NCBI RefSeq assembly: GCF_037042905.1
Contig: NC_087251.1
Location: 33,792,001 to 33,856,000, forward strand
Source: Lytechinus pictus
Lineage: Eukaryota
Length of the DNA: 64,000 nt
Reading direction: 5' to 3'
This document shows positions 6,324 through 58,809 of the stretch, one piece after another. Numbering within the stretch: position 1 is the stretch's first letter; the number at the start of each line of letters is the position of its first letter. The notes below the pieces were generated by a model. It did no database searches and was not told the origin of the DNA. It saw only the letters and a program-made list of their open reading frames with translations. The position numbers and the translations under genes are program-made.

Positions 6324-24276
<17,953 letters not shown>

Positions 24277-26548: not shown

Positions 26549-29500
26549 ATGGCGCATTGGTTTCACAGAAATCCCATCAAAGCAACGAATGCAGTAACAT
26601 TTGACTTTGGTGGTCAAGCTAGCACTCCTCTTGCAAGAAACATCTGCAGGTAAGTAAGAGAACAAATTTAGCTGCTGCTAGCTGTTGTGTGTGTATTGTT
26701 GTTCTTATTGGCTCATGTGCAGTCCCGTTCATCCGATTCAGTGTTTGTTATCGACTCTTTAGACTTCATTTCAGAACACTCACACAATTATCATATCACT
26801 GCAACCATGCAAGTTGCATTTAAATTTTTACATTAAGTGATTAATACATGGTACAAGATCTACAAGGGTTTAACAATAACAGTGATCTTACCTTTACTAA
26901 TTTTTAGAATACAATGCAACACTAAAATCACTCATCCTACGAACGAGGAGTAAACCACTCCTAGCATGCCTAGTACCAATGAGGTCCAACATTACATGTA
27001 TGGACCTCATAGGCGACATCAGTAGTATTTTTGGTTAGAAATCTCTGAGAACAGGATATTTATATATTATATCACAAGTACAAGCTATATTCCTTTCTCT
27101 TATTTAAATTATAATTTTATAGTGTAAATGCATCGTTAGCAACAACAAAAAATGAAAGAAATGAAGGGGAACTTACATTTTCACGGCTTTTTCCTGATTT
27201 TCTGGGCAGCTGCTCTTCTCTTCTGACTCGCGATCGAAGCTGATATGAAGATCACGTGATTCGCGTTCTCGTCAGCTGATCGGTTGGTTATTCTTTTCGT
27301 CAGACGTTAATAATATATATTTTATAATGCTAGCATTCATCGCTAATTTAGGTGAAAGAGATTGAAGTTAAACAGCGCCAGGTCGGAATCATAATTATTT
27401 TGGAAGAGTGTATTTATACACTCGATCTCATACCTGACGTAGACGGCGCTATTCAACAAATGCACAATCTTCAATATAAAAAATAAAACAGAAAGAACGC
27501 CTTGAACACAGGCCAAAATGCCTAACGATTTCTCCGCGGCATTAACAACTATCGTAAAGGGCGCTCCATTTATCAATAAAGATGGATGCTAAGCTGTCTA
27601 TGGCGACAAAATTTGCCGCAAATATTTACGAAGAATTGTGAGAAATGGTCTGAAAATGCAACAAAAGAACCGGTGAGTACCGATTAAACATTATTAAAGT
27701 TGTAAATAGATTATACATACCTTGTAGATTTAGTTTTTAAGGTGATATTAGTGCTTAGTTCTAAGCTAGGGAGGCCCAAACGCGCGTGAGTGGAGTCCCA
27801 GTTTATTAGCACGGGTAAGTATTGGGGTGTCGCCTAGAGTGGAGTAAACTAAAATTAAAAAGAGGGTGTTGCAACGCGTTGGCCATGCCATCCGATCCGT
27901 CTTGAACTTGCCCAATTTGTGTTACGCACCCATCAGCATAAAAATGGTCATAACGTTACAAATATTTACTGTATCCATACAAAAGTACCTACCGTATGGG
28001 TACTAGTACTACTAGTATTCAACCCGGCATAATTCAAAAATTTTGACATATTCCCCAAAATATTTAGAAATAGGGAATTTATCTTAATTTCACACCTTTG
28101 TTATTTCCAGGGTAATCTGTTGTCGATATTTTCTTTGTCAATCTGTCGACTGTATGCGCGGAGGATCGAATTATGCGGCGATGGCCTTTTGCACTGAATG
28201 GTACTAGTAATAGTATTCAACCTAGTGAGGATTGATGGCTAATTTCAAAATGGTTTAGATTGCTAAATTAGATCTAGATTTATGTAAGTCTCTGGCTTTG
28301 ATTAATTCCCTGTTTGGTCTCATCTCAAATGGTCTAGTCCATAGTCGGATGGGACAAGGGCAGATTGAGAGACAGGGCCATCTTTCATCGCTAGGTTGAA
28401 TACGACTACTAGTGCCGACGGGTTGAATACTAATTACTACTACTAGTGCCGACGGGTTGAATACTAGTACCAAAATCCGTCGCCGTATAATTCGATCGCC
28501 CGCGCACACAGTCAACTGGTTGAAGAAAAAAATAACAGAAAAAGAATAACCAGCATTTGCTCTTGGAAATAAGACGGGTCTGAAATTCAGGTAAATTCTA
28601 TGTTTCTATATATTTGAGGAAACTCTCCAAACGGGTTGAATACTAGTGCCCTTACGGTATATACTTTTTCTGAAAGGAATTTTCATGAGAATTTCAAAAA
28701 TGGCATGCAATTCTTTTAAATAGGGTGAACAACTCGGCTTTCAAATGACACCAATTTTATGACAATCCATCTCCATTTTGCCAAAAAATTACATCATACC
28801 GGTAACCACTCATTCTATGAACGAGGTTATGACATGACCGGGTAACGTGTTCCTCTGCGATAATTTTTGGTGTATTTTATCATTTTTATGTAAGGACTTT
28901 TTTGGGTTTCTTGATTGATTATTGTTAATTACAATTAATGAATTGCAAGAAATTGTGAATAATGTTGGATTACATACTACTAATACAACCTCAAGCTTTA
29001 AAATGAGACTAAAATTAATTCTCTAGCCCCTGTATACCAGAGTTATTTACCTTTAAAATATGAAACCTGACTCTCCCATAGACTTTGTGTGTACTGCTCC
29101 CCCCCCCCTCGTCCACCCTCGCCATTTTGTATTCTATCAGTCGATAGATATCAGATATGATAGAGTATATATGCTTAGCTTTTTAATACCAATTTCATGA
29201 CAATATCTCTCTGTTTGACCGAGATATCGTATGTAAAACTGAATAAAATTTGAAAAAGCGTCACAACACCACCTTTTTGTTGGCTGAGTTCAAGAAACAC
29301 AGCGATAAGTATAGCTAGCTGATGTCTCATTCTAACACTACAGTGGACATTCAAGTTCCATTGCATTCTAAAAGTATATATCATTGAGTTTACGGATATA
29401 CTGTGAGTGTTTTATGGAACCATTTTGCATGCCCGCACATTTGGACAAACAAAATTGATCAGTGTGACTGTGAGTGTGAGTACTGAGTAGCATACACATG

Positions 29501-32500: not shown

Positions 32501-35500
32501 TGAATTGTAATTTATATATTCAACCCTATATTATTTTTGTGCGGGTTTTTCTTTTTGCTTTTCTCTGCAGTATTGCCGAAGATGATGCAAAAGAAGTGCA
32601 CAAATGTCTGAGATCTGCTGCTGGTATATTCAACTACATTGATGTAAGCTAAAGCTAGAAACAATGCAAATCAAGAATGTATGAATATTGAATTAAAATA
32701 CAATTTTCATCATTTGAAGGCCTATTTAATATTTCTGTAACATTATATGTACTTTTGTGTTAGAACAAAATTCTTTTTATTAATGGCTTATGACCTGTCA
32801 AATCTTTCAACGCTTTTACAAAACTAGTAGGATATTCCAGTTCATGACTTGCAAAATTTCTCATAGAGGTCATATGATATTCAGTAGAATTCTTCAGGTA
32901 GGATAAAGCAAGTGTACATAGCAAATGAATATGAATTTGGTGTGTTAGGGTGGAATATTGAAAGTTTTCAATCTAAGACAAGGAAGGAAAGAGAAAGGTT
33001 TTAGAACAAGGGAGACTCTCCCTATATGCCGAGATGGTAATATTTAATCAATGACTCTGTTTAATATATTGATAGATAGACTTAAAAATAGGAAGAGCCG
33101 CCTGGCATAGTTATGAATACAAGAATGCAATACCTGTACTTTCTACAGCGCCACCAGAATTTGACTGGAGGCACTCAAGAAAACACTGGTATAACAAAAG
33201 GCATCATTAGTTATCAACATAATGATGAATGACTTTGAGAGTTTAAAGGGATTGTTTCACTTTGTGAGCAATTGAAAAAATTATCATATTGCTTTTTGAA
33301 AATGGTATGAACATTTGACTAACAGCTCAAAAATACCCATGTGAAAGTTTGGGATCATAACATGTTCGGGAAGTGTTTTTAAAAACTGAAAATCTGAGGC
33401 AATGTTTGAAGAGAAAAATGCACTTCTCGACGGTTGATTCATGATTCTGTTTCCAATTTAAATCGATATTATATAGCGCCACCTTGTGATGTATGCAAGA
33501 AAGTAGGCGGAGCTTACCACGGGGAATTTCGCTTCTTGCGTGATCTGTGGGCGAAGTTAGTTTGTTTTGGGTTTTTTCTGTGTCTCCGCTCGGTGTGTGC
33601 GATAAGCGATCGATGCATGTGCGTTGCTTATTGCCTGTGTGAAAGGGTGTAGCTAGTGTGTGTCGCTTGTGCATAACATTGGGGGAATATCATAAGTCCA
33701 TGATCATACTGTCAAACTGTGTCGAACTCGTGAATGTCCATTCCGTCTGTGTTCTGTACATTTGAATATGCTACATACATGTATGCCTCATAATGAACTT
33801 TGTAGACTTACAGACCATGGGATTTTGATGAATTCATATTTTGGCGACGTAAATTAGTAGCAAATAAAACGACAACAACAGAAAAGAACGCGACAAACCG
33901 GGGCTACAAATACAATCTCGGATCTACAGTGTAGAGTAATAGTAGTTTTTTTTGTGGATCATGGGGGCCGGGGATGGAGCGTGATTTTCCAGAAGCTATA
34001 TTGTGCCCCCCCCCCAAAAAAAAGAAAAAATTCCCTCTGTTCTTTTCTTTAGTTTACCTTTGCATGCACTACAAGATATATCCTTGTGGTTGTTGATAAT
34101 TCTCTTTTACCTGGTCACGATATAGCAAACGTCCGTCGACTGATTCGAGAAGAGAATGCAATATAGCTCCATGTAATGCAATATCATGGAGCTGTAATAT
34201 GTATCCGAACTCCACTCTGGTCATGTTACGTCCACGTAGTCACAGGCCTTCGTGTGTCATGTGCATGTTTACATACACGGGGCATAGCTGGGTAGGAACT
34301 CGGAATAAAGGCAGTGACCTCTCCTTCTCCCCCCCCCCCCCCTGGCATGGACTCGAAACATCCACCATCGTGGGTTTTTTTTTGTGTGTGTGTGTGTGTT
34401 TTTACGTTCTCCACGAGCTCCCCCAACAAAGATATTCCCATCCCGGATTTCCCATCCCATCAAAATCTTCGGTAGGCCTATCTTCACGTAAGATGCTTAT
34501 GAGAAACTCCCGGGGAGAAACTATATGATCAACGTATTGCCCCCCCCCCCCCCTCCGATCGATCGGGGCCTATCCGTTTTGGACTTTATTTTGGAACGTG
34601 GTAGATAGGGTAGTTGCAAACCCAAAACATCTCAACTCCTAGACCCCGGACTATAATGAATATTAGACCTACAAATTATTATCCATAAACTTTGTTGGTT
34701 TTTTTTTTTTTTTTTTTGATTGGTTTTTTTGTAAGGGGTAGGAATCGTATTTAATTTTATCCATGATTGGGGTCAATAATTCTTTCAGTTTCTCCGCCAT
34801 ATAATCCGCTCATGACATCTTTCAAATCATATCACTTTTCTTTTACATTTTCTATTTCTTTCGGCCGCTCTTTTCTTTTCTTCTGCTTCCCCTCTCTCGA
34901 TCCTCCTTCCGTAAATTCTTTACAGTAAAAAAGAAGTCTGATTTTTTTTACACATCCCTGATTACTATATGAACCTTACGTGAAAATAGTGTTTTGTGTT
35001 CTTTTCTAGCTCGTTTACCTGAAAACCTGTAAATTGGTTATTGATTTTCTTCATACAATTTATATGAAACCTCAGCGTATATGAAGCATCCTTTACCTTC
35101 GATCTGGTATTGTTTATATTGGTTGGTTATATTCACGATTAAAAAAATGCATAAATATAAACAAAATAACATTACATAATCAAATAATTAAAAAAAAAAA
35201 CAATATAACAAATTAACAATATAACAGTAATGAAGCTTACAATGCATGTAATACAGAATCGTAGGGATAGACCCGTTTCAGATTGGCTATTGATAGCCAA
35301 CCTGTTCTTCCCCGGGGTCCCTAAAAATAAATTAATTAAATTAGCATTACAATATGAAAATTTCTAATAAATACGAGTATAACAAATCAATATAAAACAA
35401 ATGTAAAATAATATATCCTCATGATATCATTCATTTGGGGAAAATAATGAAAAATGAAATAGTGTAATTAGTCACACGTTATCAATCACGAAAGTTCCCT

Positions 35501-38173
35501 TTTCTGCTCGATCCAATCACTGAAACATTCAAATTCCATGGAACAATTAGTCATACATCATCACCACAACTATCACATAACAATACACTTAAATTCGTGT
35601 ATTTTAAAACAAATTCTTGTGAATGAGCATAATTGTATTTCCGTCGATATTGAAAGGCCGTCTCTAACAGGGTATGACCCCCCCCCCCTTCCCATGTCGG
35701 GATAAGGGGGAGTGGAAGAAGGAAAGAAAAAAAATGAAAAGAAAAGAGGCTGTCGGACTGACGTCTACCGGAAAAATGATATAACTGTTGGGTCACGAAG
35801 GAATGTTCCATTACTCCGTGTATATATATGCTATACCGACAGTGATTAGAATATACTGTCACACAGGGCGGTTCTAATTAATTGCTTCATGTTCCGAGAG
35901 AGATTTGAATGTATATAGGTTTTAGGTCTAAATCGCCTTACAATCAAGCCCATTCTTTTTTACGTACAGTGATTAAAATTGCCCGGCCATATGTCCCAGT
36001 CGCGAAAATTGTTAGCTCGCGCTTCGCGCTCGCATCATTCAGACTGTTCCATTATCATCTTCACAAGTTTCTTACGTGTTGGGCAGCGCTTTTAAGATAT
36101 TCACTTTTATGTCAGAAAATTTAGTTCGCGCTACAAACAGCTTGTCCTTTATTGTTTTACAACGTCCAGTCATGATCAATTATATATAAAAAAAATATAT
36201 ATTGTTGAGCATGATATACCCTTCGTATTCATTATTACAAGAAGTGCAAAAGGAATGTCTAGTTTTTATGTCTACATGTAAAAAATAGCTTATTGTGCTT
36301 CGCGCTTGCAATTATTGTTTACTGAGGTACATATAATTTGATATTTACATTAAAAAAACCTGCTTAGAATGTCCAGTTGTCGGGCCATAATAATATTCAG
36401 CTCGCGCTATTCGCTCGCATTGTTTAATTTAATGTCCACCATGTCCACAGTGGCGTATCTAGAACAAACGAGGCCCGGGCAAGTGCTAAAATCGCACCCC
36501 TTTCAAAATATAGGTCTATTGTGTATATACTCTGCACTCGACCAGTCAAAATAAAACATAATATTCTAGTCCGGGGTTTTTTATCATGAAAATGATGCGT
36601 ATCTAACGAAAACAACGTATGCGAGCGCTAAGCACGTGCCTATTATTTTCAGTATTAAGATCTTAAAAAGGAATATTCTAAGCACTTTTTGTAATAATTA
36701 ACATGATGCATATCCAGACAATGAACGCATTCGCGAAGCGCGAGCCGAAAATTATTGATATTGAGACCTCCAATCGGGACATATCGATGCTTGTCTAATT
36801 AAGCATTTCATGCAAGCACGAGGGGCGAGCTGAAAAATTAATATTGAGGGGAAATCTTAATAATAATGATGATAATGATAATAATTATAATAATAATAAT
36901 GACAATAATAATAATAATATTGGTGGCTTCTTATATAGCGCACGCGTCCACCTTTCGGTGCTCATGGCGCTTGTAGAAAAATAAACACAACACCCAACAA
37001 CAATAGAAAACGAAAAAGAATAGAATTTGAATTCTCCTGAATGTTAATGGGAGATCAAAATTTAGTTTTCACTGGGACTTGAATGTTTCTGTTGATGAAA
37101 ATTTGGCGTAATTGGATAGCCAATCGATTCCATAGCTTTGGTCCTATAACAGAGAATGCATCCCCCCATTTGTGTTTGGTTCTGGGTGTCTGGAGCAATA
37201 GAGCATCAGAATGATGAGCGGAGACTGCGTGAAGGCTGATATTTTGAGATAGAGCTGCGGAGATATGTGGGGGAAGAGAGAATAAATTGAATAATAGTAA
37301 AATAATTTTGAAGGAGATTCTTTTATCAACAGGCAGCCAATGTAAGGACTGGAGGATTGGCGAGATGGAGTCATACTTTTTAGTGTATGTTAGGAGACGG
37401 GCAGCAGAGTTTTGTAGACGTTGAAGTTTTGTCCAATCTTTTTGTGGGAGGTTAAAGAACAATGAGTTTGAAAAATCTAAACGGGAGGAAATCAAAGCAT
37501 GGATAATTTTAGGGGCTTTTTGTAGGAATTCATGAAAAGGATACGTATCTCATCGGGGTAGGCCCTAATGTGAGCGCGAAGCGCGATATGATATTTTGTA
37601 TATCCTCACCTAAAAATGTCTAATGGAGAGTTTTTATCTCCCTCATCAAAATCAGAGCGTGGTGAGAAGCTTTGACAAACCAGAAAATTATATTTCTGAA
37701 CTGTTTGCAAGAATTAATGAAAAGAAAGATATAAAAATAATGCAAACTCGTAGCTATAGATGAAAAGTTATGACATTTGAGTTTGAAAAACTATTTTTTT
37801 TTTATAAGGAGTGTTTGTTGGAATTCATGGAGAGAATATAAGTATATCACTAATTAAAAGTTGCACGAATATTCATCCCTGGGTAAAGACATGCACGATT
37901 ATTTTTTTACGTTGAAAAGTGCATTAATGGTACAGAGAACGGGGGTATTACCGTCAGCGGTATTCCTTTTTCAGCGTCTTAATTCCTTTGCTTTTTCTAT
38001 TCATTTTTTCCCTTTCTTTCTTTGCATCTATCTCCCGTTTTTGCACCACTGAAAGTAGCACCCGGGGCACGTGCCTCCATTGCCGCCCCGGCTAGATACG
38101 CCATGTAATAAAGTCCACTTTTCATGTCGGAAGAAATATCAGCTTGCGCTCCGCGCTCTAATCGATTGTTGAG

Positions 38174-38215
<42 letters not shown>

Positions 38216-41200
38216 AACATGTACATGTATATATGTATAACATGTACATGTATAACTTCACACATTTATATATATATATATAGCCATTCTGTTCATGGTT
38301 CCATTGCTTTTTATGTCTTGTTTTAGGTCTAAATCTAGGGGGAAAATCACCTCGCGTCTAATTCTCTAATATGACGTTTCTTCTTTAAATAAAAAACGGA
38401 CTTGAACTTTCCAGTTTTTAGATCTGAATTAAAAAAAATAATAATCAGCTCGCGCTTCGCGCTCGCATTAATTGTTTGATTACATACTCATCCTGGTTAT
38501 GATTTCAAAACGTGGTTAACATGTTCAGTTCTCAATAATACTCATATTGTACATGACAGAAAAAGTGCTTAGATTGTCCGAGTTTCGGGCGGAAAATTAG
38601 AATTTCTGTTCGCGCTTCATGCACGCTCGCATCATAAAGTTATGCTTATATATCCATCCAATTTATGGTTGAAAATGTGATTCGAATATACATTTTTTAG
38701 TCCCAGATATTGAAAATGTACAACTCGCTCTCGCATTTTATTGATTGGTGAGATTTGTACTACATGTACATTCATGAGTCACTGCAAAACGAATACTTTT
38801 GTAGGTGAGTATATTAAAAATTACTTCTGTGTTTCGCGCTCGCACGAATCTTTTCGTTAGATACGCATCTTCTTCATGATTACAATAACTGCCCAGAATA
38901 TTCAATTCTCAGTTCTAAATAAAAATATACAATAAATTTAGCTTGCATGTGATATATTTAGACCTCATGAGATAAGGTAAGATAAGACTGTATTAGAACT
39001 TCGATCTTTAGTTAGGTCAAGCCCTCTAATATATAAATGAATAAATAAATAAATAATAACGTGAATAATGCCCCCCCCCCCCAAAAAAAAAAAAAAAAAA
39101 AAAAAGAATTTGGCGGCCTATCGGGAAAGTGTGAATGATAATTCCCACCCCTACCTTTAACTGATGAAAGCCTGTACTGCCCTGGGTATGGTGGAAGAAA
39201 ATGTGACTGAGGAGAGTGTTGAACACTTCCAAGACTCATGGTCGTATAGCTGACGTCGGTACACGTTACCGATATACATTTGTAGAATCAAGGGCTATAC
39301 CGACAAACATTTTGAACATTTACGATGGAGTATAGCTCGTGAGCAAAAAATAAAATAATATAATCACTTTTGAAAATGAACACCACTTCCCCCCCCCCTC
39401 TCCCTTGCATGGTTGTGGAAGTTCGTAGTGTTTTTCGTTTGCGCGGGGGAGGGGCTCAAATAAAGGATTATAGGTATGTTCGTTTTGATCACACGAATCG
39501 GGCAGTGATAATAATACATGGGCACCTTGAGCACCTAACAAGATGGACACGTGTGCTATATAAATATTATATTATTTTATTACTATTATTATCATTACTT
39601 AGAACTTATACGCTACTCGCCCCTTCCACTTCCCTCGTCTCCATTTTTTTTTAGGGGGCCGCAGGTATAGGCATAATCTATAGCGTTCCCGCTCCCCCTT
39701 TAAATAATTTTAATATTTTTTCATCGTCCATTCTGGAGATATATGATTTTATCTCTCCGATCCGCCTCGTCTGTGTGTAAATGCGCTAGCGTGAAGGGAG
39801 GGGGTCGCTAGCAACCAACCTCCAACCTTGGACAACACAAGAAATAGGAGAAAAAATAAAGGACATTTTAATATTAGAAACGAAAATGTCTGCTATGTTC
39901 TTGTTTGTCTTTTCCCCTGTTTATATTCCATAATGATGTAATGATTTCAAAAATCACATGTTCAGACCCCCCATTCCTCCATGTCCAGGGTTGCACTTTG
40001 TGAATAAGAGAATTCAACCTGGTCACACGTCGTTTTCATATCCTTTCATTTTACTTCTCTCTCCCAATTTTCTTTCTTTAGTCATGTTCGTTGTGTTGTA
40101 GAACAATAGAGTGGACACTTTGACGTCGAAATAAGGTTACCAGACTAACGAAGGGAATGGGAAAGGTAGCGATAAATGGAAGCGAGGGGAAGGGGCACGC
40201 CCTCCTAAATTTTAGATAAGTGGGGTAGTTACCCCCTTAAAAGGAAGAGGGAAAGAAAGAAAGAAAGAAAAAAGAAAAGAAAGGAAAAATGTGAAAATAA
40301 AAATAAGAAAAAGATGAATATCACATGTTTACTAAAACCAATAATACCAAAATAGCAGTTTTGACAAAGGAAAATACTTAAAATTTAAAGCAAAATAATC
40401 ATACAATCAAAAATAAAAAGTTTGTTTTCCGCACCAAAATGAAGGTGTTTGGATCAAACCTGTACATCACCCCCATATAAATCTTGGAGGTGATTTAGCA
40501 CCCCCGCTTACAAAGGCCATGTGCATCGGTGTTTCCACAGATCCAAAACAAACTTCTCGAATTTATAGACATTTCCTAGAATTTTTAGTTTGATTTTAAC
40601 AAAAATTGTACAAAAATGTAGCCAGCCGAAACTTTCAGCAAACAATTTTAAAAATATAACATGAATGTTGACAGTTGCTATGTTTAATTATTGTTTACTT
40701 GTTATAAGGCTTTGGATTTCCCGAAATTTCCTGCATGGATTTGTTTCATTCGGAACCTTTCCTGGAAAAGGTAAAATTTCCCGAAATTTCGGGAGGAGTG
40801 GAAACACTGATGTGCATCACGGGAATATCTATATATAACCCTTCATAATGCAATGTTATAAGGGGTTATAAGTAATATCACGAACATGCTATTGAAATAA
40901 AAATGTAGGATTTTAATATAAAATCGAAAAACTTTTCAAATTCAACTCTTTGCGTTTACTCGCATTTCTCTATTTTATTACTAAACTTTATATGCCCTGT
41001 CGCCGAACCCTGCATGTGTCTTTCCACATTTTTTAAAATCGGATTAAAGTGACATTTTTAGATTGGTGACTTCATTTTTTTGTACAAAATACCATCTGGA
41101 CGTCTCAGGATTCTGGAGTTTCTTGGGGCTTTGCTATCTATGCCTAGAGAAAGCGGAAATAGAGAGGAACGATAAGAAAGGATATAAGAAGAAGAAAAGT

Positions 41201-44200
41201 GAATGAAATAATAAAAGAGGAACGATTTGAAAACAGAAAAAGTAGAAATCATTATACAAAAAAAATCAATCGCGAATATACTTTTTAAAAAATCAGCTTG
41301 CGTTTTACATGCGCTCTTATCATTATTCAGGAAAATATGCAGCAATATTCCAAAACAGTTTATACAATGTTTCGTATTAAGATCTTAATTTCAACAAATA
41401 TCAGCTCGCTTGGTGTATAAACTTTATACTTACCATAAGACCGTATTTGATTAGAATGACCCGATTCAGCTCTTCATGTCAAAATATTAATAATTTTCAA
41501 CTCGTTCTTCGTGCTCCGCGCTCGCACCATTCTGTTGTATAATCAATGCAATTTAATAAGTTTGAATCTCGGGTTTTCAGTTATTTTTTTCCAAGCAATG
41601 TGCTTATAATGACAATCCTCGATCCTGCTAATTGTTAATATCATAATATGTTGGGTGTGGATCATTTGGTGTGTGTGGGTTGAATCATATTTTTAATAAG
41701 TACACTCTATTATTCATGCCAAAATTTAAAACGATATTATGTTTCTTTTGTTATGAAAATGCTAATACGCATTTACGAGAACAATAAATCAAATCGAATT
41801 GTTTAAGATGAACATACCCTGCGTGATTACCAAAAGTGAGTAGAATGACCCGTTTAAGATGTTCATGTTCATAAAAAAGTTCGCGCTCCTATATTTATTT
41901 TCAAGGCGAAATATAAAAATAAACATTACTTTGCGCGCTTCGCGCTCGCATCATTAATTTAGGCCATAGTAGGTCCATGATTGTAAGAATAAAGCTACGA
42001 TGTACTTAAAAATTCAGACTTTAGTTGCATGGGACACCCCCCCCCCTAAATGATAATAATTAAGCATTTATCAGCCGATGTGGAAGAAATGTGGATGGAA
42101 ATATTTCTTACCCCCCCCCCCCCCCGAAGTACGTAAAAATATACATTCTGGCACTGGCGGCGGAAGATCATGCTTCAACACCGCCGGAACACCGCCAATC
42201 CAGAATCTAATATTGTTATGCTTTCGCCGCCGGCCACAAAATAATGCAATTATTTTTATGTCCTTTTTATCCCCAGCATATACCTTTTTATGCTGCACCA
42301 AATCGTTTTATATAATTATTATAAAAATGTTCGTTATACATTGGTTGTTGGGCTGTGCAGTTATGTGTTGGAGGGGGCCGGGGGGCAGCTTTACGTTGTG
42401 CAGGGGTGGATCCAGGTGAGGAGGCACAATTCATGAGAAAATTTTGAAAAGAAAAAAAAAAAGAAAAAAAAAGGTTTTCATCTAAAAATTTACAATCTAA
42501 AGGTTTTTCGCCAAAAATTTGTCAAGCAAAAGAAGAAGAAGAAAGGACCTCGCGTTCAAAGGAAGGGAGTGCATACGTGAGTAAAATATGGCAGATTTAC
42601 TACACAAGTTTTGATTACTGCTCTCAAAAAGGTGCTCGGCCCATTAGAGAAACAGTCTTGAATAAATGAAATGTTATAATCATGTGACTGCACAATTAAA
42701 AATGAATGTCCTGTATTATGTTCATTTTTCGAGCGATATGGGAAGGGTCTTACGTAATACCAAGTAATTTGCATACCCACATAAACAACGAAACGTTCAC
42801 GCATGGGATAAAGCCATCCTTCCCTCAGCTAGCCATGGTCCATGCCTCAGCTCACGACACACGCAGAGCTTGAGAGACCACATGTTCTTATTCTATTCTC
42901 AAGTACATGTATGATGTTCTGGATCGCACATATTTTATTCTGGTGCTACACTTTCGCTTTATCTTCATGTAATATTTAAGTACATCGCCCCAAATTTGCC
43001 ACGTTACTACCATCCCGGCGAGGAGTCAGTAAGTCTGCATTTTTCTTATCTTAGATGGTCTGTACATATCTTTCGTTGCGCTATCAGAATCTGTTTTTCT
43101 TCTTTCATACTACTTTCTCTGCTTCGACTAGAACCGTCAAGGCACTATAGAAAAGAGCCAGCAGAGAACATGCGCTGCATGTAATGTTTACAATTCTCAG
43201 TGCATGCCGGCCGGAGCGGCCTTGCCCCCATTCACTGTTGGTTGATTGACAGTTCTCGCTTGCGTGTCCGTTACGATCTCAACGCTGAGGGAGGCATACA
43301 ATTTTATTTTCAAATCGGGATGTCACAGTAATTTGGGAAATCGTCTAGTAGACGAGTTCTAATATAATCACATTTTCCTACCTACTAACAACTTTTCATT
43401 CAAAATAAAGATGATTTCTAGGGTTTTTTAGAACAAGTTCATAAACTCATAAACATAATTCATCTTAATTTGAGAATTTTTTAAATCAGCTTCTCACAAT
43501 GTTAAACGATCCCTTTAAGTAAAATGAAAGGAAAAAAAATAATTTAATCAAGTTATCTGAATACTTATTATTATTATTTTATTATTATTAGTATTATTTT
43601 TATTATTATCATTATTATAAGGATAAGTTGACAGTGAAGTTGTTTGAGAGAACGGGAGATGGAACTGACTTAGATCCAAACATCATCAAGGCTTATGCTC
43701 AACAGTGTACAGCAGAAGCACAAGAAGGTAAGCAGTCATATTTAAACCTTAATAGAAAACAAAATCAACTGAAAAAGTAATTTTCATAAAAAGAGATTTT
43801 AGAGAGAAGCAATATATAAAGTTCATTAACTCGGGCTAAAAATTGAAATGAAAGTGTTATGAATCTTTGAAAAGTTGTAATTTATCCTCTGTCCACTTTT
43901 TAATTTTCAATATTTCTTATATTCTATGTTGCTTCATAGTGCTATACTTAGTGAACAATTTTTACAAATTTCTTAAAAATTAGCAGTAATACAAGGCACA
44001 TGGGTCAGTGGTATAGTGCCCACCTAATGAACCTCATGAGGTAATGGTTCAGTCCCTGCCAGAGTATTACCAAAGACTTTTGAAAATGGGACCTACTGCC
44101 AATCGCCCTTAAATTATCAGGGTTGGTATATATGACTGCAATTAATTTTAGTGCTAAATCATTCCGTGATCACATAATACTTCTACATAGTGTGATTATC

Positions 44201-47200: not shown

Positions 47201-49052
47201 ATTGAAAGTAAGCAAAGGTCATTCGAACAAATCTACACATGAGTTAACTATGAACTTGTTTATTTACTTCATTTGAATCCAGTGATTTCCATCCTATTGA
47301 CTTAAACTCAATGAAGGAAAGACTGAATTTCTTGTCATAGGTTCAAGTCACAACCTTCGTTCTCTAGTGATGTTAGCCTTGGTATTGGTTCTACTACTAT
47401 TGTATCATCCAAATCTGTTATAAACCTTGGTGCTTACTTTGATTTTAATATGAATAGGTTAGAACAAGTTAATCAATTATGTAAATCTGTCAGATTCCAT
47501 CTAAGAAACATATCGCAGATAAGAAAGTACATAACTGAAGACACCTGCCACAGTGCTGTTCGTTGCCATATTTTGTCCAGATTAGATTCCCTAAGTGTAT
47601 TTGAAGCGCCTACAAAGTTTACAAAACTGGGCAGCCCGTATTATCTTTAAGGTGGACTGACGTCATGATACTGGCCCTTTACTTAAATCTCTTCATTGGC
47701 TCCCTGTAAAGAAGAGAATTGTCTTTAAATTACTTCTTTTTGTCTTCAAAGCCTTTAATAACCAAATGCCAAAATATATCACAGATAGCCTTGCTTCCCA
47801 TAGACCAACTCGCCCTAATCTCTGTTCATCTAAAGACCCATATTTGCTTGCCATACCCAAAACTCGTACAAAAACAGGTGATCGCACATTTAGTGTTACT
47901 GCTTCTAAAGAATGGAACAACATCCCCACTTTCATTAAATCATCAAACTCTTCAGATCAATTTAAGAAACTTCTAAAAACATACCTCTTTTCCGATTAAT
48001 TTCTATTGCGTGTATTTGTATTGTAATTATTATGTACTTTTGTTTTAAATCATTTGTAAACGCTGTGATATAGTTAACTATGGAGAGTGTACTAAATGCT
48101 AATTATTATTATTATTATTATTATTATTGAGTTGTCTCCCTCTTCTCTGTACAGATATTATCAGAAGGTGCCAGAAGTTGTACCTGAACTACCATCAAAG
48201 GCCACCTATGGACTAGCCAGTCCCGTTGAATTCGTCATGCCAAGCAAACATGAGGAATGGACTGCCGAGACTTACAATGGATTTAAGATCTCCAAACCAG
48301 ATGCTGAGAAGGTATGAAAGTGGGATACACAATATACCAATATATATCTAGATTAATAAATCTTATGAATATACATGTAATTTTAAAAGGCGTAAAAAAG
48401 ACTCTTGTCTCTTGCATTCTCATAACTCAATCTTCATCATCACTGTTAAACTCTCCGTTCAATGGACATGATCCCAAAATCATATCTCACATCATATCTT
48501 TTACATTCATATGAAATTGTGAACTCAATGTTGCCATAAATACTAACATTTAAAAATAAATCAAAATTTCTACTAGTTTGAGATACAAGGTTTTAAAACC
48601 CTGGTGACCATATGTGCGTCTTTTTAGCACAAGGAGGGGTTTTCTCTCTGCTCCTTAGATTATAGCCCACAATTCTGAAATGAAAAACCAAGAGGTCTTA
48701 AAAATCAGAAGACTATGATTAACATAAGATTATATTTGTCAATGATTAACACCTATAGCTATTATGGGCTACTGGAAATCCTTGCTTCTGATTGGAGGAG
48801 TACAAATTAGTTGGGGTGAAAATCACTGTCAAAACCCATCATGAAATACTCCCAAGGGAATCATTTGTGAAACGACAGTGGTCCCATTCATAAAGTTTTG
48901 TGTCATTGTCTATCAATTCACAAAATAAGTCCTCTTTTATGTTCCCACAGAGAGACAAGGAGAAGGAAGACGCCCCCAAACCTGTCAAAGAGGTACCTGT
49001 CAATCAGACAGACAAGGAATCTAGCAATAGCAGTGGATGCACCATCTCCTAG
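26549..49052 (+). CDS. BROX: BRO1 domain- and CAAX motif-containing protein (ESCRT accessory), 11 coding exons, 441 aa
   Basis: Exons: 26549-26649, 29944-30097, 31353-31477, 32108-32206, 32571-32643, 43622-43727, 44237-44412, 44999-45080, 45733-45883, 48155-48311, 48951-49052. Total 1326 nt, all GT-AG, phases compatible. Starts [13 protein letters not shown], contains [22 protein letters not shown] and ERENGFIYYQKVP, and ends in the CAAX box CTIS. Confidence 0.95.
27978..28670. mobile_element. ~700-bp foldback/palindromic element in BROX intron 1
   Basis: Nested inverted pairs: 27981-28026 vs 28632-28668, 28051-28110 vs 28562-28621, 28144-28185 vs 28477-28516. Repeated TAGTATTCAACC / GGTTGAATACTA motifs. 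Confidence 0.65.
36448..38105. mobile_element. Nested non-autonomous DNA element with CAGTGGCGTATCTAG TIR
   Basis: CAGTGGCGTATCTAG ... CTAGATACGCCATG. Internal GCGCGAAGCGCG-type motifs. It contains the L2 fragment below. Confidence 0.6.
36860..37520 (-). mobile_element. L2-clade LINE 3' fragment
   Basis: ORF 37055-37495 (SRLDFSNSL...[11 protein letters not shown]...LQSLHWLPV...[10 protein letters not shown]) is a typical L2 ORF2 C-terminus. It is followed by a stem-loop 3' end and an (ATT)n tail at 36860-36920. Confidence 0.85.
40527..40809. mobile_element. hAT-type MITE with a perfect 8-bp TSD
   Basis: ATGTGCAT|CGGTGTTTCCAC ... GTGGAAACACTG|ATGTGCAT. Confidence 0.85.
45993..46290 (+). mobile_element. 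tRNA-derived SINE with an L2-like tail
   Basis: A box TGGCCCAGTGG and B box GGTTCGAATCC, a core containing GACCCAGG...TGAATGGGTACC, and a tail GCGC...CGCTATATAAATG followed by (ATT)n. Confidence 0.88.
47290..48128 (+). mobile_element. L2-clade LINE 3' fragment
   Basis: Decayed ORF2 C-terminus ([35 protein letters not shown]...[10 protein letters not shown]) ending in (ATT)n just upstream of BROX exon 10. Confidence 0.85.
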
Positions 49053-51455
49053 GCAACGGTTACAATGACAACGAAATGAATCAGCGTCCTGTGGTATTAT
49101 GGGATAGCTTGGCATAACATTCATTTACAATATATTATAATTATGTGATGTATGGTAAATCTCTTCGATACACACTCTCTTTTGATCGTGAGCAGGCTTT
49201 ACCTCACCTCTTTATTCTATTATTATTTTTATTAAATTTACTTATTCATTTGTTTATTTATTTATTTCATTTATTTATTTTAGATTTATTCTTATATTTA
49301 TTTATTTTATTTATATATTTATTTTATCCATTTATTCATTATTCTTTAAATTTAGTTATTTACTTATTTATTCATTCATTCATTCATTTTTTTTTTTGGG
49401 GGGGGGGTTTGTTAGGATAGAGTTATAGATGAATTATTTCATGCTGCTCTGTACTGTTCATCTGTAATTCTGTTTTACACAAAATGAAGTGTGTTTGCCT
49501 TAAAACAAAGAAACTTGCCCTTTACTTTAACTTCATTTGATGGTATTGCTCAGTTTCAATTATGCTCAATATAGTTCATATTGAAGTTTAGTAAGATAAA
49601 CATTTGTTGCAGTTCACTCAAATTGACTTTTTTTTATACTGAACGAGATGAGAAGATTGAATTTTGAATTCCTTCTTTTATTTATGAGGCATTTTGCTTG
49701 TATTATAGTCTGTCACTGTATAACTTTTTTTATTACATAGCTTCCATTACAAGGTTTTTTTTGTGGAAAGAATATTATGTGTTTTCCAGCATTTCACTAG
49801 ATGAAATTATTAACAAGTAAGAAATTTATGTTTTTCTTTAAATGTTTCATATCTGTATGAAATGACTATATTTATTATTTTTGTCTATCATCAAATAGAC
49901 AGATGAATATTGAAAATGATGTATATTACATTTTCCATTGCAACATATTTAATTTGAATTTTCCTAGGTTTTTCGTATGAATTAAACTTCTATGTTTTCT
50001 TACTATATTTTTATAGTATTATTATTTTTAAAGAGTACCGTTATTAAAATTATTAGATCTGTTTATCTAAGAAACTATGATTTTGTAATTTACTATAAAA
50101 TTATTTAAAACAAATATTCCATGTGACTGTATTGAACAATTCATTTAAAATATCATGAACACTATTCTTCAAGTGAACCTAGAGAATACTTGAGAGAAAA
50201 ATGAGGGAGGACATCAGATTTGATAGACCTCTATGTAGTAATAGCTAGAAATATTGCACTAAATTTGTTATCAAACACAATTCTAAATGTTCTTATCAAC
50301 AGCTGTACACAACAGACCTAACATACACTTTTTGTAGAGTGAAAATTACACCCACTTACTGAAAATTTAGTTTGTTTCTAATTAATTCCCATTTTTATTA
50401 CATGTTTAATCTATTGAAGGCCAAGAATATGTACATGTATTATATTTTTATATATGCAGAATATTTTATTTATTTAATCATGTAGATAGTCGTTAAATGA
50501 AAGATTAAAATCTAGTAGTACCTTCGATTTTTACTTTTCACAGGTATTTTGCTCTCTCCTTTATTTTGGGAAAAATCATTTTTTTAATAACATGGTTGTG
50601 TTAAGCATTATTTCGGTCTTGAGTATTTAAAGAAAACAAAATAATGTACAATACATGTCTTTACTTAAAGTAGTTTTGGGATTGTGCAAATATATGTATG
50701 GTAGCCAATGAAATAAGATTTTAATTACTGAAAGGGGTGAGAGAAATGATTATTATTTTATGCGGAATTTATTACATATGTGTTTTGGATCAGATTTTGG
50801 GATGTTATGTCAAAATAGTTAATTACCGGTATGTTGCATTGTGCAAAAAAAATGCTGAGTTTTTTTTGTAAAGCCGTATCGACATTCCGTTTGCATTTTA
50901 TTTTAAAATTAGATAATCAGACTTAAAAGATGAACAAATAAATGAATACTCAGATATTGTTTAAAATGTGCCATTATGGGAATGCCATGTATGTTGAATT
51001 TTGGTTTTAATTTCCTCTTTAATATAGTTAATGATAAGAAGCAAATACAAGAGAGAAAAGTTTGTTTTCCCCATAAATTGTAGAGAAAATGATAAAGAAT
51101 TTTCAACATATTGCCTTGGATTACAAATGTTGGAGGAAATGGTTGCAGTTGGCTACTTTCCAATGATGGTTTAACAATATGCTGTGTTTAAGCATTGTAT
51201 GAATGTTGTGTAATATCATAATTATTCATTGAAAATATTTTTGGGGATTGAGATTTTTTCACTTGTTTTGGGCTAAAACAAGTGATTTTTTTCAATCAAT
51301 AAGTGTTGTGTAGAATATCATGTGATTAGATGTCAAAGGTCACACACTTTTGTGTCATTAGTGCTTATAAAAATTAAAAGATAGGAATGCCAGACTAAAT
51401 GTAACAACATACAGTAAAAAGATGTTGACATGCCCCCACTTTCTACTATTCAAAT

Positions 51456-51684
51456 CAGGGGCAGATTCTGAATTTTCCAAGGGGGGGGGCACATATCTTT
51501 ATAAGAATTTGGACAAACAAGACACTCACTCCCGAACGATGGTGATTTATGGCACAGAAAAATTTGACAAGGTAAAAAAGGGTTGCGTTTGCACAAGATT
51601 TTCCACTAAAACTATTTTGTTTCTCAGAAAGGGGGAGAGGAGGTGTTCACAGGGAGGATATGCCCCCATCTGGATCTGCCACTG
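51456..51684. mobile_element. hAT-like MITE
   Basis: CAGGGGCAGATTCTG ... CTGGATCTGCCACTG, flanked by ATTCAAAT / GCTCAAAT (6 of 8 bases match as a TSD). Confidence 0.6.
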
Positions 51685-52217
51685 GCTCAAATATTTGTCA
51701 GATGCATCCATTTATTGTGTTTTTCTTGTAACAGGAACAATCGTTTGTATGTCACTAATAAGATAATGGGATTTATATGACATTTGTTTTCTATCAATAA
51801 TAATGTACATGCTATATACATAGATGTAAATAGAAATAATAAAAAAAGGCGAAGAAAAAACAAATTAATAGTATTGCTTTGATTCCCAGTGATTTGCATA
51901 AAAATTAATCGTATAACAATACAGATTCATTTGATGAATTTTACGTTCATATCAATTTCTCCATATAAAATTAGACACTGGTAGGCTATATGAAAATACA
52001 AAATAAAAGCCAATGTCTTTTTCATTGTTTCTTCTTTATTTACATTATTTACAATGCCACAGTGAAATATATATTACAGGTGAATTTTCGTCAATTTACA
52101 CCCATGATTTATCATTAAAAAAAAATTATTGTCACAATTAAGAGATGGTTCTCTAAAATATCCTGTATTGTTGTTCCCGTGGTGACCCATTGAATCTAGT
52201 CCAAGTCTAGTCTAGGT

Positions 52218-53470
52218 CTAATCATCCGTAGGTCCATCATCCCTCTTCTGATATTCTGGAACCATTACGAGATAGTAGCCCCAGGGTATGTAGCAGCTGA
52301 AGAAGAGAGTGAAGTAGGCAAATATACAAGCTCCTGTTGAGGTGGGGCTCTTTTCTATGCAAGTCTGGGGGTCGGGGAGGGGGTATCGAAGGAATGAGTG
52401 AAAGAGAACATAGGAGAAGGGGGAGTAAGACAGAGAGAACAGAAGGAATGAAGAGAAAGTGAACGAGAGAAAAATACAAGGATATTAAAAAGGGGAGAGT
52501 GCCAGGTGGATGGAGAGGAAATGAAAGAGACAGAGAGGGTATGGCAAAACACAAAATAGAAGAGATTGAAATGAAAAAGGGGGCGGGTGTATGAGAGAAA
52601 GGGTGAAACAGAAAATTAAAGGGATATTAAAAGGGGTGCGAGGTGGATGGAGAATGAGAGCGAGGGGATGGGATGAGATCCCATAAGTATGTAGGCATAC
52701 ACTTGTCTTCCTAATGGAAATTCATTTCCCGGCACTGGTTACGTATAACAAGAGAATATACGACAAACGTACAAATCATACAAATATGAACAGAGACACA
52801 GATCTAGACAGATATATCTACTGAATTACGACAGATTCTGAAGTGAGAAGACGTCAGCGAATTTTATTGGAAAATAAAAAGAGACACTTGACCATGTGGA
52901 CGAAAAAGGGAGAAGGGTGAAAAAAGTTGGGAGGATAATAGACAAAAGTAGTGAATATTTGAGTAGACCTAGATGGAGATGATTCGTTGCGTAGTTTCAT
53001 AAAATATTTTATAGGCCTAAAGTTAGGTCTGACAAGATCTAGACTTCTAACTTACAGATAACATCAATTCATGTTTAATAAAATAAATTAAGAAACAAAT
53101 AAGCGACAAAAAAATCTCGCATGACACCCGTCTTTCTTCATCAAAAAATATAAACCTATTTCTAAGCATTCTCATGGCGGATTGGTTTTTATCAATCATT
53201 TCATAATCATATAACTTAAAAGTTGGGGCGAGGCATCGTCATTTTTTTCTCAAATTTATTTAATTACAAATAATACAAAAAATGGGAATACGGCCTAAGC
53301 TAAATATAACAAGTTAAACTCACTGTGCTGAATCCGCATGCGTTTCTTTTAATTTGTTGACCAAGTTTCTGGTTGAACTTAAAGTTCAAGGCTGACTGTG
53401 GACGTCCAACCATTTTTGCCCTTGATGTTCGCAGGGCCTGGAAAACAGCGGTTCGAGCGATCCCATACAT
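52218..53470 (-). CDS. Small two-exon mitochondrial single-pass membrane protein, cytochrome c oxidase subunit 8 (COX8)-like, 97 aa
   Basis: Exon 1, 53470-53324: MYGIARTAVFQALRTSRAKMVGRPQSALNFKFNQKLGQQIKRNACGFST, donor GTGAGT. Exon 2, 52364-52218, follows a long pyrimidine tract and CAG: TCIEKSPTSTGACIFAYFTLFFSCYIPWGYYLVMVPEYQKRDDGPTDD*. The join is phase 0. The N-terminus is Arg-rich with no acidic residues, followed by one TM helix. Minus-strand AATAAA at 52040-52035. Confidence 0.75.
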
Positions 53471-53969
53471 GATGGTGATGACAAAGACACAAGACTTTCT
53501 TTGAAATAAATGTTCAGTCAGAATGTATTGTTTTATCTAATGATGTAGTCTCAAGTTTGAAAAAAAAAATTATGTTACTTTTATAGATTAAATTTCTCTG
53601 ATAATGCGATTGAAATTATTATGCATCGCAAATGCACTACAGTAGCGTTGCTTGGAAACCAAAGCGCGTCATACGCCTTTGGCGCCAAAAGTGGGCGTGT
53701 CTGTCATAGGACCTATCGCTGGGATAATTTTATCGGGATAATCAATACGGGCCAACGGGACGCGACGGGCCACCCCTTTATTTATTTTTCATTTACGTAT
53801 TTATTTAGTCATTTTTTGCCTTTCATCTTTTCAACAGACACTTTGATTCATTATGACCGAGGCCTTTCTTTTCTTCAAATAGGCCTTATCATTTTCAAGA
53901 CTCTTTTTTTTTCAAGATCTAATGATTGGATGCATCGAAGAGATTTAATTATGTTTGTGCGCATTACGA

Positions 53970-55183
53970 TCTGCGCATATTTTACAACTCTGCGCGCTGA
54001 CGTCACAATGGATGAACAGGTGATTAATTGGTTGTAGGTATGAGCTGATTTTTTTCATCATCTCATCTGCACATCTGCAAATCCGATGCGTTATTTTGTG
54101 AAGCTAAAAAAATTGAATTAATCCATGGACCATTTTAAAAATACCTCTACAATTTAAAAATACTTTACTTTGCAGTGCTGGAAAGTATGAAGAATATGAC
54201 CCCGAGTTTGAATAAATGGTAGAGTGGTTTTGATTTTTTCTTCATAATTATAGATACAAAGCATTTGGCGCGCGTTTTTTGTGTTTTAAAAAGCACATTT
54301 GCTCTAATAAAAGTGCTGATAGTTTGAAAACAAGCACATGAACCCCTATTTTTTAATGTTTGCACCTCTTATGTATACCTTCCTCTATACAACTTTGCAA
54401 AGTTTGGTGAGAATGACATAGATTTTGAATGAAGTGCAGCATTTATTGCACTTTTCTAGTTTGTTATTGAAATTTCACATTTTTGAGATTGGTTTTTTTG
54501 TTATCTTTTACGCCATTTTGAAGAACTGACAGTGCTGTTAGACATAAAAGAGCACGCGAATAGCACTATAAATAGATTCCCAATCTTAACGATACAATTA
54601 TTAACTCCCTTGCGAAATTTGATGAAATTTTCATGGATTTTGACTGAGTAACAGAGGTTTAAACTCATTGGCCCGTATTCTGAAGTCGGGTTTAACATAA
54701 AATCAGGTTTAAAGTTGTGGTTTAAGTATGGATAGCCAATTGTTACATAATTCAATAACAGTAGAGATATCATATTTCAGCTCATTTGGCTCTCAAATCA
54801 TTCATAATTGTCTAGGAAGTATAAATATATGATTGTCTTCACCATTGAAGAATCAGGAAAGAGCACAGTAAACATACAACTTAATAAAAAAATTGACACT
54901 TTTGGCTTCCCATAAATTTAGTACAGAGTTAGACCATGGTCTAGGTTAAACCTGACTTCAGAATACGGGTCAATCTAGTGATCTCGAGAGGTCTAAAAAA
55001 ATTCCAAATTATTTTGAATGTGCAATTCTTAGGAACATCCATTTTTGTGAAGTTTGAAGCTTGATAAATCAAGCACATGGACCCATGTAAATTTTTGCAT
55101 ATTTCGATTATCAGGTTCTAAAGTATCTACATGCAAAGTTTGGTGAAAATGACATGAATTTCACTTTAACTGTGGAATGTCCT
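53970..55183 (-). mobile_element. Short relative of the 8793-16290 Kolobok-type element (inverted, one TIR lost)
   Basis: Colinear in reverse with 15240-16275. Ends in AACTGTGGAATGTCC, matching the 8793 terminus. Lacks the expanded satellite and the foldback insert. Confidence 0.85.
54670..54971. mobile_element. PIF/Harbinger-group MITE nested in the element above
   Basis: GGCCCGTATTCTGAAGTCGGGTTTAAC ... GTTAAACCTGACTTCAGAATACGGGTC. Absent at the corresponding site (about 15430) of the other copy. Confidence 0.8.
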
Positions 55184-55598
55184 AAAATGGTTGGATTCAT
55201 GTTAATTTTTTTATTTATAATTTGGATCATTGTTAAAGATAAATTAAGGGAAGCCAATTTCACAACACATATTTACACAATACATATAAAAATGCAGATC
55301 AAGATAATGTCTATACAACCAAGCTGATACGAGAAAGAAGCTTGGATACACAATTGATTTTATGAATTGTTCCATGATAAATTCAAATTTTGCTTTCAAA
55401 GAAGTTCTACAAAATTATGTACACCTCACCAATCATATTCTATCGAGATAAGAGGGTTAATAGAAGAGAAGAAGAGGAATTGAATATACCGGCCCTGGTA
55501 TTAATAGGTGAGACCAAGGCATGCAGCTCAATACCTCCCCGGAATTATATTGTTCAGTGTTTGTTAAAGAAAAGAAGATATGGAACTTTTTTCTTTTA

Positions 55599-55757
55599 TT
55601 GTTGTTGTTGTTATTATCATTATTATTATCATTAATATTTTTATTATTATCCTTATTATTATTGTTATTATTATTTTCATCATCATCATCATCATTATTA
55701 TCATCATCATCATCATCATCATCACCATCACCATCGTCATCATTATCATTATTATTA
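55599..55757 (+). repeat. (ATT/ATC/GTT)n trinucleotide microsatellite
   Basis: Read directly from the sequence. It explains the low-complexity ORFs at 55390-55802. Confidence 0.92.
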
Positions 55758-56331
55758 ATTGCATGGCCACATAAATTTTCAAGATTTTATATTTTGATGT
55801 AGAGAATATCTGCCATTAATATTTCAGTAATTTGCAGTATGATAACAAGTTGAGTGAATTAAGGAAAACAATTTATTATACAGGGTCTATTTTATATTCG
55901 TAAATATGAAACTGGTATACCCAGTTGTTGTGTATCCGGACAGGTTGTGTGTCTGGACAATCATGATCAATTTTGCAGCCATTGAGAAAAATTAACAACA
56001 GAGTTTCATTGATTTCTAGTACAAAATGTTCAGTTAGGCAATATTATAGAAAAAAAATAGAAGATGATTACAATAACTGAATTCATACTTAATGTAATCC
56101 AAAGATAAAAGCTAGAAGGTTTCAAAAATTTAAAGTGTCCGGACACTCGACCCCGCCCCCCATCCTATTAATTTAATTCTTTAGTTTATTTGATGAAAAT
56201 AAATGCATATTCACAAGACCACAAGACCACAAGACCCTTATCCATTTTCAGCTTTCAATGCCGTGGAATGGAAATAGGATTTTGGAGAAGTTGAGATCAT
56301 TTGAGTTCCCAAATTATAGCACATCAACACT

Positions 56332-57399
56332 CAGTGGCTTACACCGTGGGTCATATGGGGTGGCACCAGCGAAAATATTGAGTCACTTTTATTGGGCGCG
56401 CGAAGCGCGCTCAATTGACAGGTAAACTGACCTACTCAAATTTGGGACTAGTGCCATTAAACGAATATGATTGTATCTCACTTATCAAATAATGCGAGTG
56501 CGACTCGCGAGCTGAAATTTTTTGATATTCAGACCTAAAAAAGGATATCATAAGCAAATTTTTGTAATCATGACGTACCTCTCTCACAAAACAAACAATG
56601 CAAGCACGAAGCGCGAGCTGAAATTTTTGTATATATTGACCCTTAACATAAACATAAGGACTATTTTTAAGGAATTTATGAAGAGCATACATATCTCACC
56701 ACATCTAATGCGACCACCATGCAATTAGCGCTTGCTGATTTTGTTAGAATTACACCTAACCCATATGAAACACCTTTTGTGGTCATTGTAATACATGATA
56801 CATATCTCACTAATCAAATATTGCGAGCGCGAAGGGCGAGCTGAACATTTTTGAAATTCAGACCTGAAGAGGGGCATTGTAGGAATTGGAATTCACTAAG
56901 ACCATACATATTTCACTAACCAAATGACGCGAGCGCGAAGCACAAACAGAAAATGTTTGATTTTCAGACCTTAAAAGGGGGCAATCACTTTAAGTATATA
57001 GTCATGAAAAAAGCATATGTCACTACATAAAACAAAAAAAAAATCGAAGTGCAAGAAATATATTTGGTGTATATTGACTTGAAAATGGGAGTTTAGTAGA
57101 ACAGATCTCATTACTCAGACAATGCGAGCACCGGAATGATGAACACATATGCCCTCTATATACGCCCTAAGCCAATTATGTTTCATAAATTGATGAAAAA
57201 ATATTTCTTATGTTATAGGATATAATATATATATAATATAATATAACACAATATGATAATTTGTTCTTCCCCACTACGTTTCTCTTTCTTAATTTCTCCT
57301 TCTTTTTATCCTTTCCCCCCGTTTTTTTTTTTTGCCAACCGATGGGGGTGGGGGCACGTGCCCCCCATGGCCCCCACCGTAGTCACGCTGTCATCACTG
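56332..57399. mobile_element. Non-autonomous DNA element with CAGTG...CACTG ends and GCGAGCGCGAAGCGCGAGCTGAAA subrepeats
   Basis: Periodic GCGCGAAGCGCG-type motifs about every 110 bp. The same motif family occurs at 36000-36850, 38140-38850 and 41500-41950. Confidence 0.55.
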
Positions 57400-57834: not shown

Positions 57835-58809
57835 ATGAGGATCAGTTTACCCACAATTGAAGCGGGAAAAATGGCGAAAATTGAAAGTATTGTGAACACA
57901 TTTGTGTCAATGATGGAGAATTTGGCGAATCTGATTGTGCCGCTGATTCCTGGCCAGAAACGGATGTTGCTCCTCGCCAACAAGAGCGGCGTAGCTTTCT
58001 ACTTCGTTGTGTCAGTTATTGTGTTCTACGTCAGTACGTTCGTAATCTTTCCATTCAACCACAGGATCGAAATGAATGATCCTACCATTGACTCGAATGC
58101 ATCAACGCCCATTTCGACATGGATCCTGAGTTTTTGCATGGGCAACATGATGCTGAATTATTTGCGAGCAATTTTCAACCCGCCATTTTACGATGCAGGG
58201 CAACTGAAAGTGCCAACGGCCGAAGGAGGGAAAAATTGGGGATATTGCGTTCCTTGTCAGCAGTATGTTCCTCCCCGAGCCCACCATTGTTCCGTCTGTA
58301 ACCAGTGTGTCCTGAAGCGAGAATCACACTGCTTCTTCTTGGGGAACTGCGTCGGTCACATCAACCAGGGATTTTTTGTCGTCTTCCTCTTCTACACTGC
58401 CCTCTCAAGTCTATTCGCACTTCTCCATTTGGGCATGTACTTCCATCATGTCATCGGACCGATCGTTTCCTTGAGGATGCACCATTACCTTGTCCCGGTT
58501 GCGACCTATCAATGTTTCATGGGCTATTTCACAGTAACGGACTATCTCATGCTGTTACTATTCTACAACATGCTGATGATTGGTCTTGGCTGCAGCGTTC
58601 TCTTTTTCAAACAGATCAGCCTTATCCTGCAGGGTCAGACGAGTTATGAAGCAGCAAAAAAGGTCAACCTGTATGACAGTGGTGCCCATTTAAATCTTCA
58701 GGATGTCTTTGGGAGGTATTGGTGGGTTCGTTTCATCATACCTATCAAGTTTTCTCAACCAGTAGATGGCATCAAGTGGAGCAGGGTCAAGGATATCAAA
58801 CGATACTGA
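57835..58809 (+). CDS. Intronless DHHC-family palmitoyltransferase (ZDHHC22/ZDHHC24-like) with variant motif ESHC
   Basis: 324-aa ORF; a second ATG in AAAATGGCG context lies at 57871. Four hydrophobic segments. Cys-rich domain YCVPCQQYVPPRAHHCSVCNQCVLKRESHCFFLGNCVGHIN, a TTxE-like GQTSYE, and NLxDVFG..W...IIP. Confidence 0.92.
   Translation: MRISLPTIEAGKMAKIESIVNTFVSMMENLANLIVPLIPGQKRMLLLANKSGVAFYFVVSVIVFYVSTFVIFPFNHRIEMNDPTIDSNASTPISTWILSFCMGNMMLNYLRAIFNPPFYDAGQLKVPTAEGGKNWGYCVPCQQYVPPRAHHCSVCNQCVLKRESHCFFLGNCVGHINQGFFVVFLFYTALSSLFALLHLGMYFHHVIGPIVSLRMHHYLVPVATYQCFMGYFTVTDYLMLLLFYNMLMIGLGCSVLFFKQISLILQGQTSYEAAKKVNLYDSGAHLNLQDVFGRYWWVRFIIPIKFSQPVDGIKWSRVKDIKRY

Follow-up and report, generated by a model that had tools for sequence, protein, structure and literature searches.

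Two short exons in a 64,000-nt stretch of the genome of the sea urchin Lytechinus pictus (contig NC_087251.1, positions 33,792,001 to 33,856,000; hereafter the window) raise the question of whether they form a gene missing from the annotation and, if so, whether its product is the smallest subunit of mitochondrial cytochrome c oxidase (COX8), as a sequence-only reading of this DNA had proposed. According to one survey, COX8 was widely taken as chordate-only and was then traced to the base of the bilaterians (PMC9346487). Dataset EV1 of that paper lists COX8A homologues for Saccoglossus (LOC102800874), Drosophila (Q9VP19 and Q9VIN5) and Octopus (A0A0L8GG18), and contains no echinoderm row. Since the subunit is documented in a hemichordate, a fly and an octopus, an echinoderm COX8 is to be expected. 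Two further studies did not find COX8 in the transcriptomes of any of 31 bivalve species (PMC8136519) and reported it absent in iguanian lizards (PMC3814190). No echinoderm COX8 was found in the literature by title and start of abstract, and COX8 was found in none of four supplementary files of an echinoderm genome paper (PMC7351957).

Gene model and genomic context

The two coding exons are located on the minus strand and are 147 nt each. Exon 1 (53324–53470) comprises 49 codons from the ATG, encodes a basic, acid-free, presequence-like segment and is followed by GTGAGT, and exon 2 (52218–52364), directly preceded by CAG, comprises 48 codons and a TAG stop and encodes the predicted mature part. 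Joined through a phase-0 GT-AG intron of 959 nt (52365–53323, minus strand), they give a frame of 97 codons and a product of 97 amino acids, just as the sequence-only reading had described. Self-BLAST identified no other match to the exon pair in the 64-kb window.

The candidate lies between a BROX-like gene and a gene encoding a DHHC palmitoyltransferase. Eleven plus-strand exons between 26549 and 49052 join into an open 441-aa BROX-like protein, a name taken over from the earlier reading; since these exons are on the plus strand, the candidate is tail to tail with this neighbour. The BROX-like frame ends in a CaaX-like CTIS, and its intron 5 (32644–43621) is about 11 kb long. Within intron 1 a CpG-rich stretch was seen by eye (about 27200–27900, plus strand), in which a short ATG frame ends at a GTGAGT donor near 27675; it might serve as another first exon or as a promoter. 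The DHHC gene (57835–58809, plus strand; Pfam DHHC, E 9.5e-28) is head to head with the candidate, and NCBI gene calls exist for its protein: out of four start variants looked up, a 324-aa form is present in NCBI and UniRef and shares a 90% cluster with ZDHHC22-like proteins of L. pictus and L. variegatus. This ZDHHC22-like gene is without introns, and the NCBI model, at 324 aa, exceeds both named Lytechinus members of the cluster by 12 residues. Elsewhere in the window, broken frames resembling pieces of LINE endonuclease and reverse transcriptase were seen by eye at 505–2850 (minus), 37055–37549 (minus) and 47327–47999 (plus), as were two adjacent tandem arrays at about 9200–12300 with units of a few hundred bases.

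The candidate product appears to be missing from the protein annotation, because the searches that would list it found nothing. The earlier suggestion that such a gene is easily missed thus agrees with the state of the records, in which the protein collection yielded no such product and the neighbouring DHHC protein is present in NCBI. Subscription papers, bioRxiv supplements or database gene pages may already carry a name for the gene, or may treat it as a non-coding transcript. The prefix XR_ marks accessions of non-coding transcripts. Small subunits are easily overlooked, and in the table that lists the COX8A homologues a Nematostella subunit has an accession with the prefix XR_ (PMC9346487, Dataset EV1).

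Splice sites and flanking signals

The splice sites are acceptable, not striking. At 5.6 bits the donor falls inside the leave-one-out range of the ten BROX donors (3.1–10.8 bits) and is ordinary, 303 of the 6405 GT sites in the window scoring as high. The C-rich acceptor is low (2.5 bits, a score reached by 877 of 6532 AG sites), and a competing acceptor inside exon 2 (52296–52298, minus strand) scores 9.0 bits; its use would give an out-of-frame 68-aa product without the helix. The long pyrimidine tract ending in CAG was found where it had been claimed (52365–52702, minus strand): it is 82% pyrimidine, is AG-free up to the acceptor and is in part made up of an internally duplicated segment of about 60 nt. 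In favour of the acceptor at 52364, no other AG occurs in the 337 nt before it, the longest of the 6533 gaps between AGs in the window, although low complexity alone can give long AG-free stretches, the second longest (314 nt) being a simple repeat.

Upstream of the candidate, the region at 53660–53770 had been noted as CpG-rich and indeed contains 12 CpG, a number reached by none of 581 fixed 110-nt tiles of the window (the region was chosen after the fact). It is unique in the window by self-BLAST and constitutes a candidate promoter. Within it, about 210 nt upstream of the ATG, lies a perfect 12-bp palindrome (53678–53689), which resembles an E2F site; the palindrome pattern occurs at one site in the window compared with 0.03 expected from 100 shuffles, the pattern having been chosen after it was seen. 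Just beyond the candidate promoter, an 86-nt element (53970–54051) recurs in the opposite orientation at 16192–16276 with 87% identity. On the downstream side, the poly(A) signal noted some 180 nt past the stop corresponds to an AATAAA (52035–52040, minus strand) that starts 178 nt after it, which is weak evidence since this DNA has 1.76 such hexamers per kb.

Features of the predicted product

The basic, acid-free N-terminus described earlier is borne out by the translation. Acidic residues begin at position 53, residues 1–49 contain nine K/R with an amphipathic moment of up to 0.66, and the composition of this part fits a cleavable mitochondrial presequence, as judged by composition and amphipathic moment only. 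The 'several Cys' of the earlier description are four, at positions 45, 51, 62 and 73.

Exon-2 residues 11–36 form a single uncharged segment of 26 residues (52257–52334, minus strand), the predicted transmembrane helix. AlphaFold applied to the exon-2 peptide alone gave one helix at residues 8–40 (mean pLDDT 72). The helix is of moderate hydrophobicity (best 19-residue Kyte–Doolittle mean 1.36), and, at the level of prediction, the product shows the COX8 feature of one transmembrane helix in a short mature peptide. Near the C-terminus, the exon encodes the pattern P-x-G-aromatic-x-L-x5-Y-x-K-R (52242–52286, minus strand). The C-terminal pattern of COX8 is P-x-G/A-W...Y-K/R, of which the urchin version, fitted after the fact, has Tyr for Trp and lacks the His. 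The sequence-only reading was right about the presence of this pattern, but left out an acidic tail of seven residues, including four Asp, that follows it.

Coding signal

GC content is 46% in each exon, equal to that of the BROX and DHHC coding DNA, and 28–29% in the flanks; in the pyrimidine tract it is 45%. Codon scores from a model trained on the two neighbouring genes, BROX and DHHC, placed exon 1 in the top 0.6–2% and exon 2 in the top 3.1–3.6% of 5448 stop-free non-coding windows, which overlap one another. The model is noisy: under cross-training, the scores of true coding blocks ranged from −14.8 to 13.3.

Using splice thresholds taken from the candidate itself, 68 donor–acceptor pairs in the window give two-exon frames of 85–120 aa. 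Presequence-like and helix features were combined in two of these pairs, both from the candidate's donor, and the COX8-type pattern was present in addition in one. In twelve null windows there were on average 42.9 pairs, of which 0.75 had both a presequence and a helix, and no pair had the pattern as well. The COX8-like pattern alone matched once in the six frames of the window and four times in 300 null windows. Since the filters were set after the fact, these two-exon and pattern counts represent consistency and not a p-value.

It might be argued that the locus is not coding as modelled: the two-exon frame could have arisen by chance, the transcript could be non-coding, or splicing could use the acceptor at 52296 and give some other short frame. 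Such readings would be in line with the roughly 43 frames of this size per null window that pass the same splice thresholds, with a weak proximal and a stronger internal acceptor, with the partly duplicated origin of the pyrimidine tract and with the failure of every search to find a homologue. They are nevertheless unlikely, as they leave to chance that two separate islands of GC and codon bias, lying in phase with each other, occur together with the unique CpG-rich upstream region, the rare C-terminal pattern and the structural match reported below. The two-exon locus is very probably a real coding gene.

Sequence and structure searches

The sequence-only reading had proposed a comparison with the Pfam COX8 profile. 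When the peptides of the two exons were scanned separately with a cut-off of E 10, neither matched a Pfam family (the scan filters drop most matches above about E 0.1), so this check did not bear out the family call, and the product is called COX8-like here and not filed as a member. Among PDB sequences, no relative emerged for exon 2, for the core of exon 2 or for a two-row profile of exon 2 itself; a GPCR row at E 9.8 was rejected as chance. Word-based protein searches gave nothing for exon 2 at 26–84 or 85–2000 residues and nothing for exon 1 at 87–2000 residues. No relative was found by phmmer among 1.84 billion representatives, three rows being rejected as long repeat proteins, or in the ESM Atlas. 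One metagenome locus from 332 pattern matches was rejected, its 16 residues being antisense to a 293-aa frame. An Rfam scan of 50000–57000 gave no match. For the PDB, word-based and phmmer searches, a query of 48 residues with an identity of about 19% lies below the limit of detection.

Foldseek, at E up to 10, returned a single row among 350,542 chains, the 44-residue chain m of 8pw5 ('CS respirasome from murine liver'), with E 6.9, probability 0.13 and 19% identity over 42 columns. In VIA-align, residues 1–42 of the model were aligned with residues 3–44 of 8pw5_m without gaps (42 aligned, Z 3.5, rmsd 3.5), and only two residues of the mature chain lie outside exon 2 in this register; the C-terminal pattern lies within the register. 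The COX8 idea had been fixed before the Foldseek search, and one control, a 48-residue helix from the DHHC protein, gave no rows. The search output does not name the chain, which, as a 44-residue chain m of mouse complex IV, would be COX8A; the COX8A sequence has eight identities in 42 positions in this register, equal to the 19% given by the tool. No literature naming chain m of 8PW5 was found. VIA-align against 48,161 representatives gave generic helices (best Z 4.4), with no COX8 among the best 50 matches listed, and is uninformative since the query is one helix. The earlier COX8 call has thus gained one independent line, a weak one, in the ungapped match to 8pw5_m with its blank control, and found no backing in Pfam or from any homologue. 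On balance, the product is likely to be a true COX8 homologue.

A different or lineage-specific mitochondrial single-helix microprotein, its COX8 likeness convergent, would account for the blank outcome of all COX8 sequence-profile tests. A presequence, a helix and an acidic tail fit several small inner-membrane proteins. The families considered were EMRE (with an acidic tail and an I-P motif), NDUFC1 and COX7C, which need gaps to align with the candidate. Their Pfam profiles matched neither exon's peptide, and Pfam gave no other family either; together with the ungapped alignment of a respirasome chain over 42 residues, this makes a microprotein of another kind doubtful.

Comparison with known COX8 forms

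The mammalian COX8A leader is about 25 residues long, compared with a predicted length of about 47 in the urchin candidate, and its intron is inside the mature part, whereas the urchin intron is at the predicted leader/mature boundary. If the mammalian leader is 25 residues, COX8A W57 would correspond to Tyr30 of exon 2. The mammalian N-terminal Pro, acidic positions and the His of the pattern are not kept in the candidate. The candidate also differs from COX8A in its C-terminal acidic extension and in having no Pfam match. Common to both are a basic leader of cleavable type and one helix, predicted in the candidate, and an ungapped 42-residue register at 19% identity, if 8pw5_m is COX8A. Mammalian COX8A, too, is a two-exon gene, intron 1 and exon 2 of the human gene being mentioned in the literature (PMC5448071). 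For Saccoglossus, Drosophila and Octopus COX8 the likeness is one of lineage context.

Mammalian COX8C (COX8-3) is likewise a divergent, fast-evolving form, which arose by vertebrate duplication; it is described as fast-evolving and highest in testis (PMC5448071). This precedent and the two Drosophila COX8 entries lend some plausibility to the candidate being a fast-evolving COX8 paralogue of restricted (germline or cell-cycle) expression, with a housekeeping copy elsewhere in the genome. A divergence beyond Pfam, the lack of an echinoderm relative in the searches and the E2F-like palindrome upstream would suit a paralogue. It is improbable all the same: no second COX8 is known here, and a systematic omission of products below 100 aa would explain the missing relatives equally well. 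Quite unlikely, too, is the more specific case of a COX8 remodelled in echinoids and driven by an E2F-type promoter, serving as a complex IV isoform specific to the germline or to proliferation beside a separate housekeeping copy and forming an invertebrate deuterostome parallel to COX8C; this draws on the leader of twice the mammalian length, the four cysteines and the predicted acidic tail in the intermembrane space.

Proposed function and significance

The best explanation of the locus is an unannotated nuclear gene for a COX8-like supernumerary cytochrome c oxidase subunit, most likely the ordinary COX8 counterpart (orthologue) of the sea urchin, to which we assign a probability of about 0.55. 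The exon GC content and codon scores, the two-exon model that combines presequence, helix and pattern, and the sole Foldseek row speak for it, as do the COX8 entries of Saccoglossus, Drosophila and Octopus and the ease with which small subunits are missed. Against it, one might have expected to meet a housekeeping subunit among the proteins of some echinoderm, the E value of the Foldseek row is high and its probability low, the stronger acceptor is out of frame, and models with presequence and helix alone also arise in null windows.

In the orthologue reading, exon 1 would encode a matrix-targeting presequence of about 47 residues removed after import; since the register puts the mature N-terminus at about residue 48, the exon would correspond almost exactly to the presequence. 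The mature peptide encoded by exon 2 would insert its one helix in the inner membrane, with the N-terminus in the matrix and the acidic tail in the intermembrane space, and may pack against complex IV at its rim, next to COX7B, stabilizing the enzyme and perhaps supercomplex contacts as mammalian COX8A does. In the literature, COX8A is described as running parallel to COX7B (PMC9346487), its loss in human left 10% of enzyme activity (PMC5448071), it is said to stabilize the I+III2+IV supercomplex (PMC5448071), and its W57 contacts UQCR11 in the porcine megacomplex (PMC13681648).

The locus is probably a useful annotation gap and not a surprise. As no new mechanism is added, the gain would be one of annotation and evolutionary bookkeeping, unless the product is a tissue-specific isoform. 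If confirmed, the gene would add an echinoderm to the record of a subunit which surveys keep reporting absent, would show how far COX8 can drift, beyond the reach of Pfam, and would serve as a seed for finding others.
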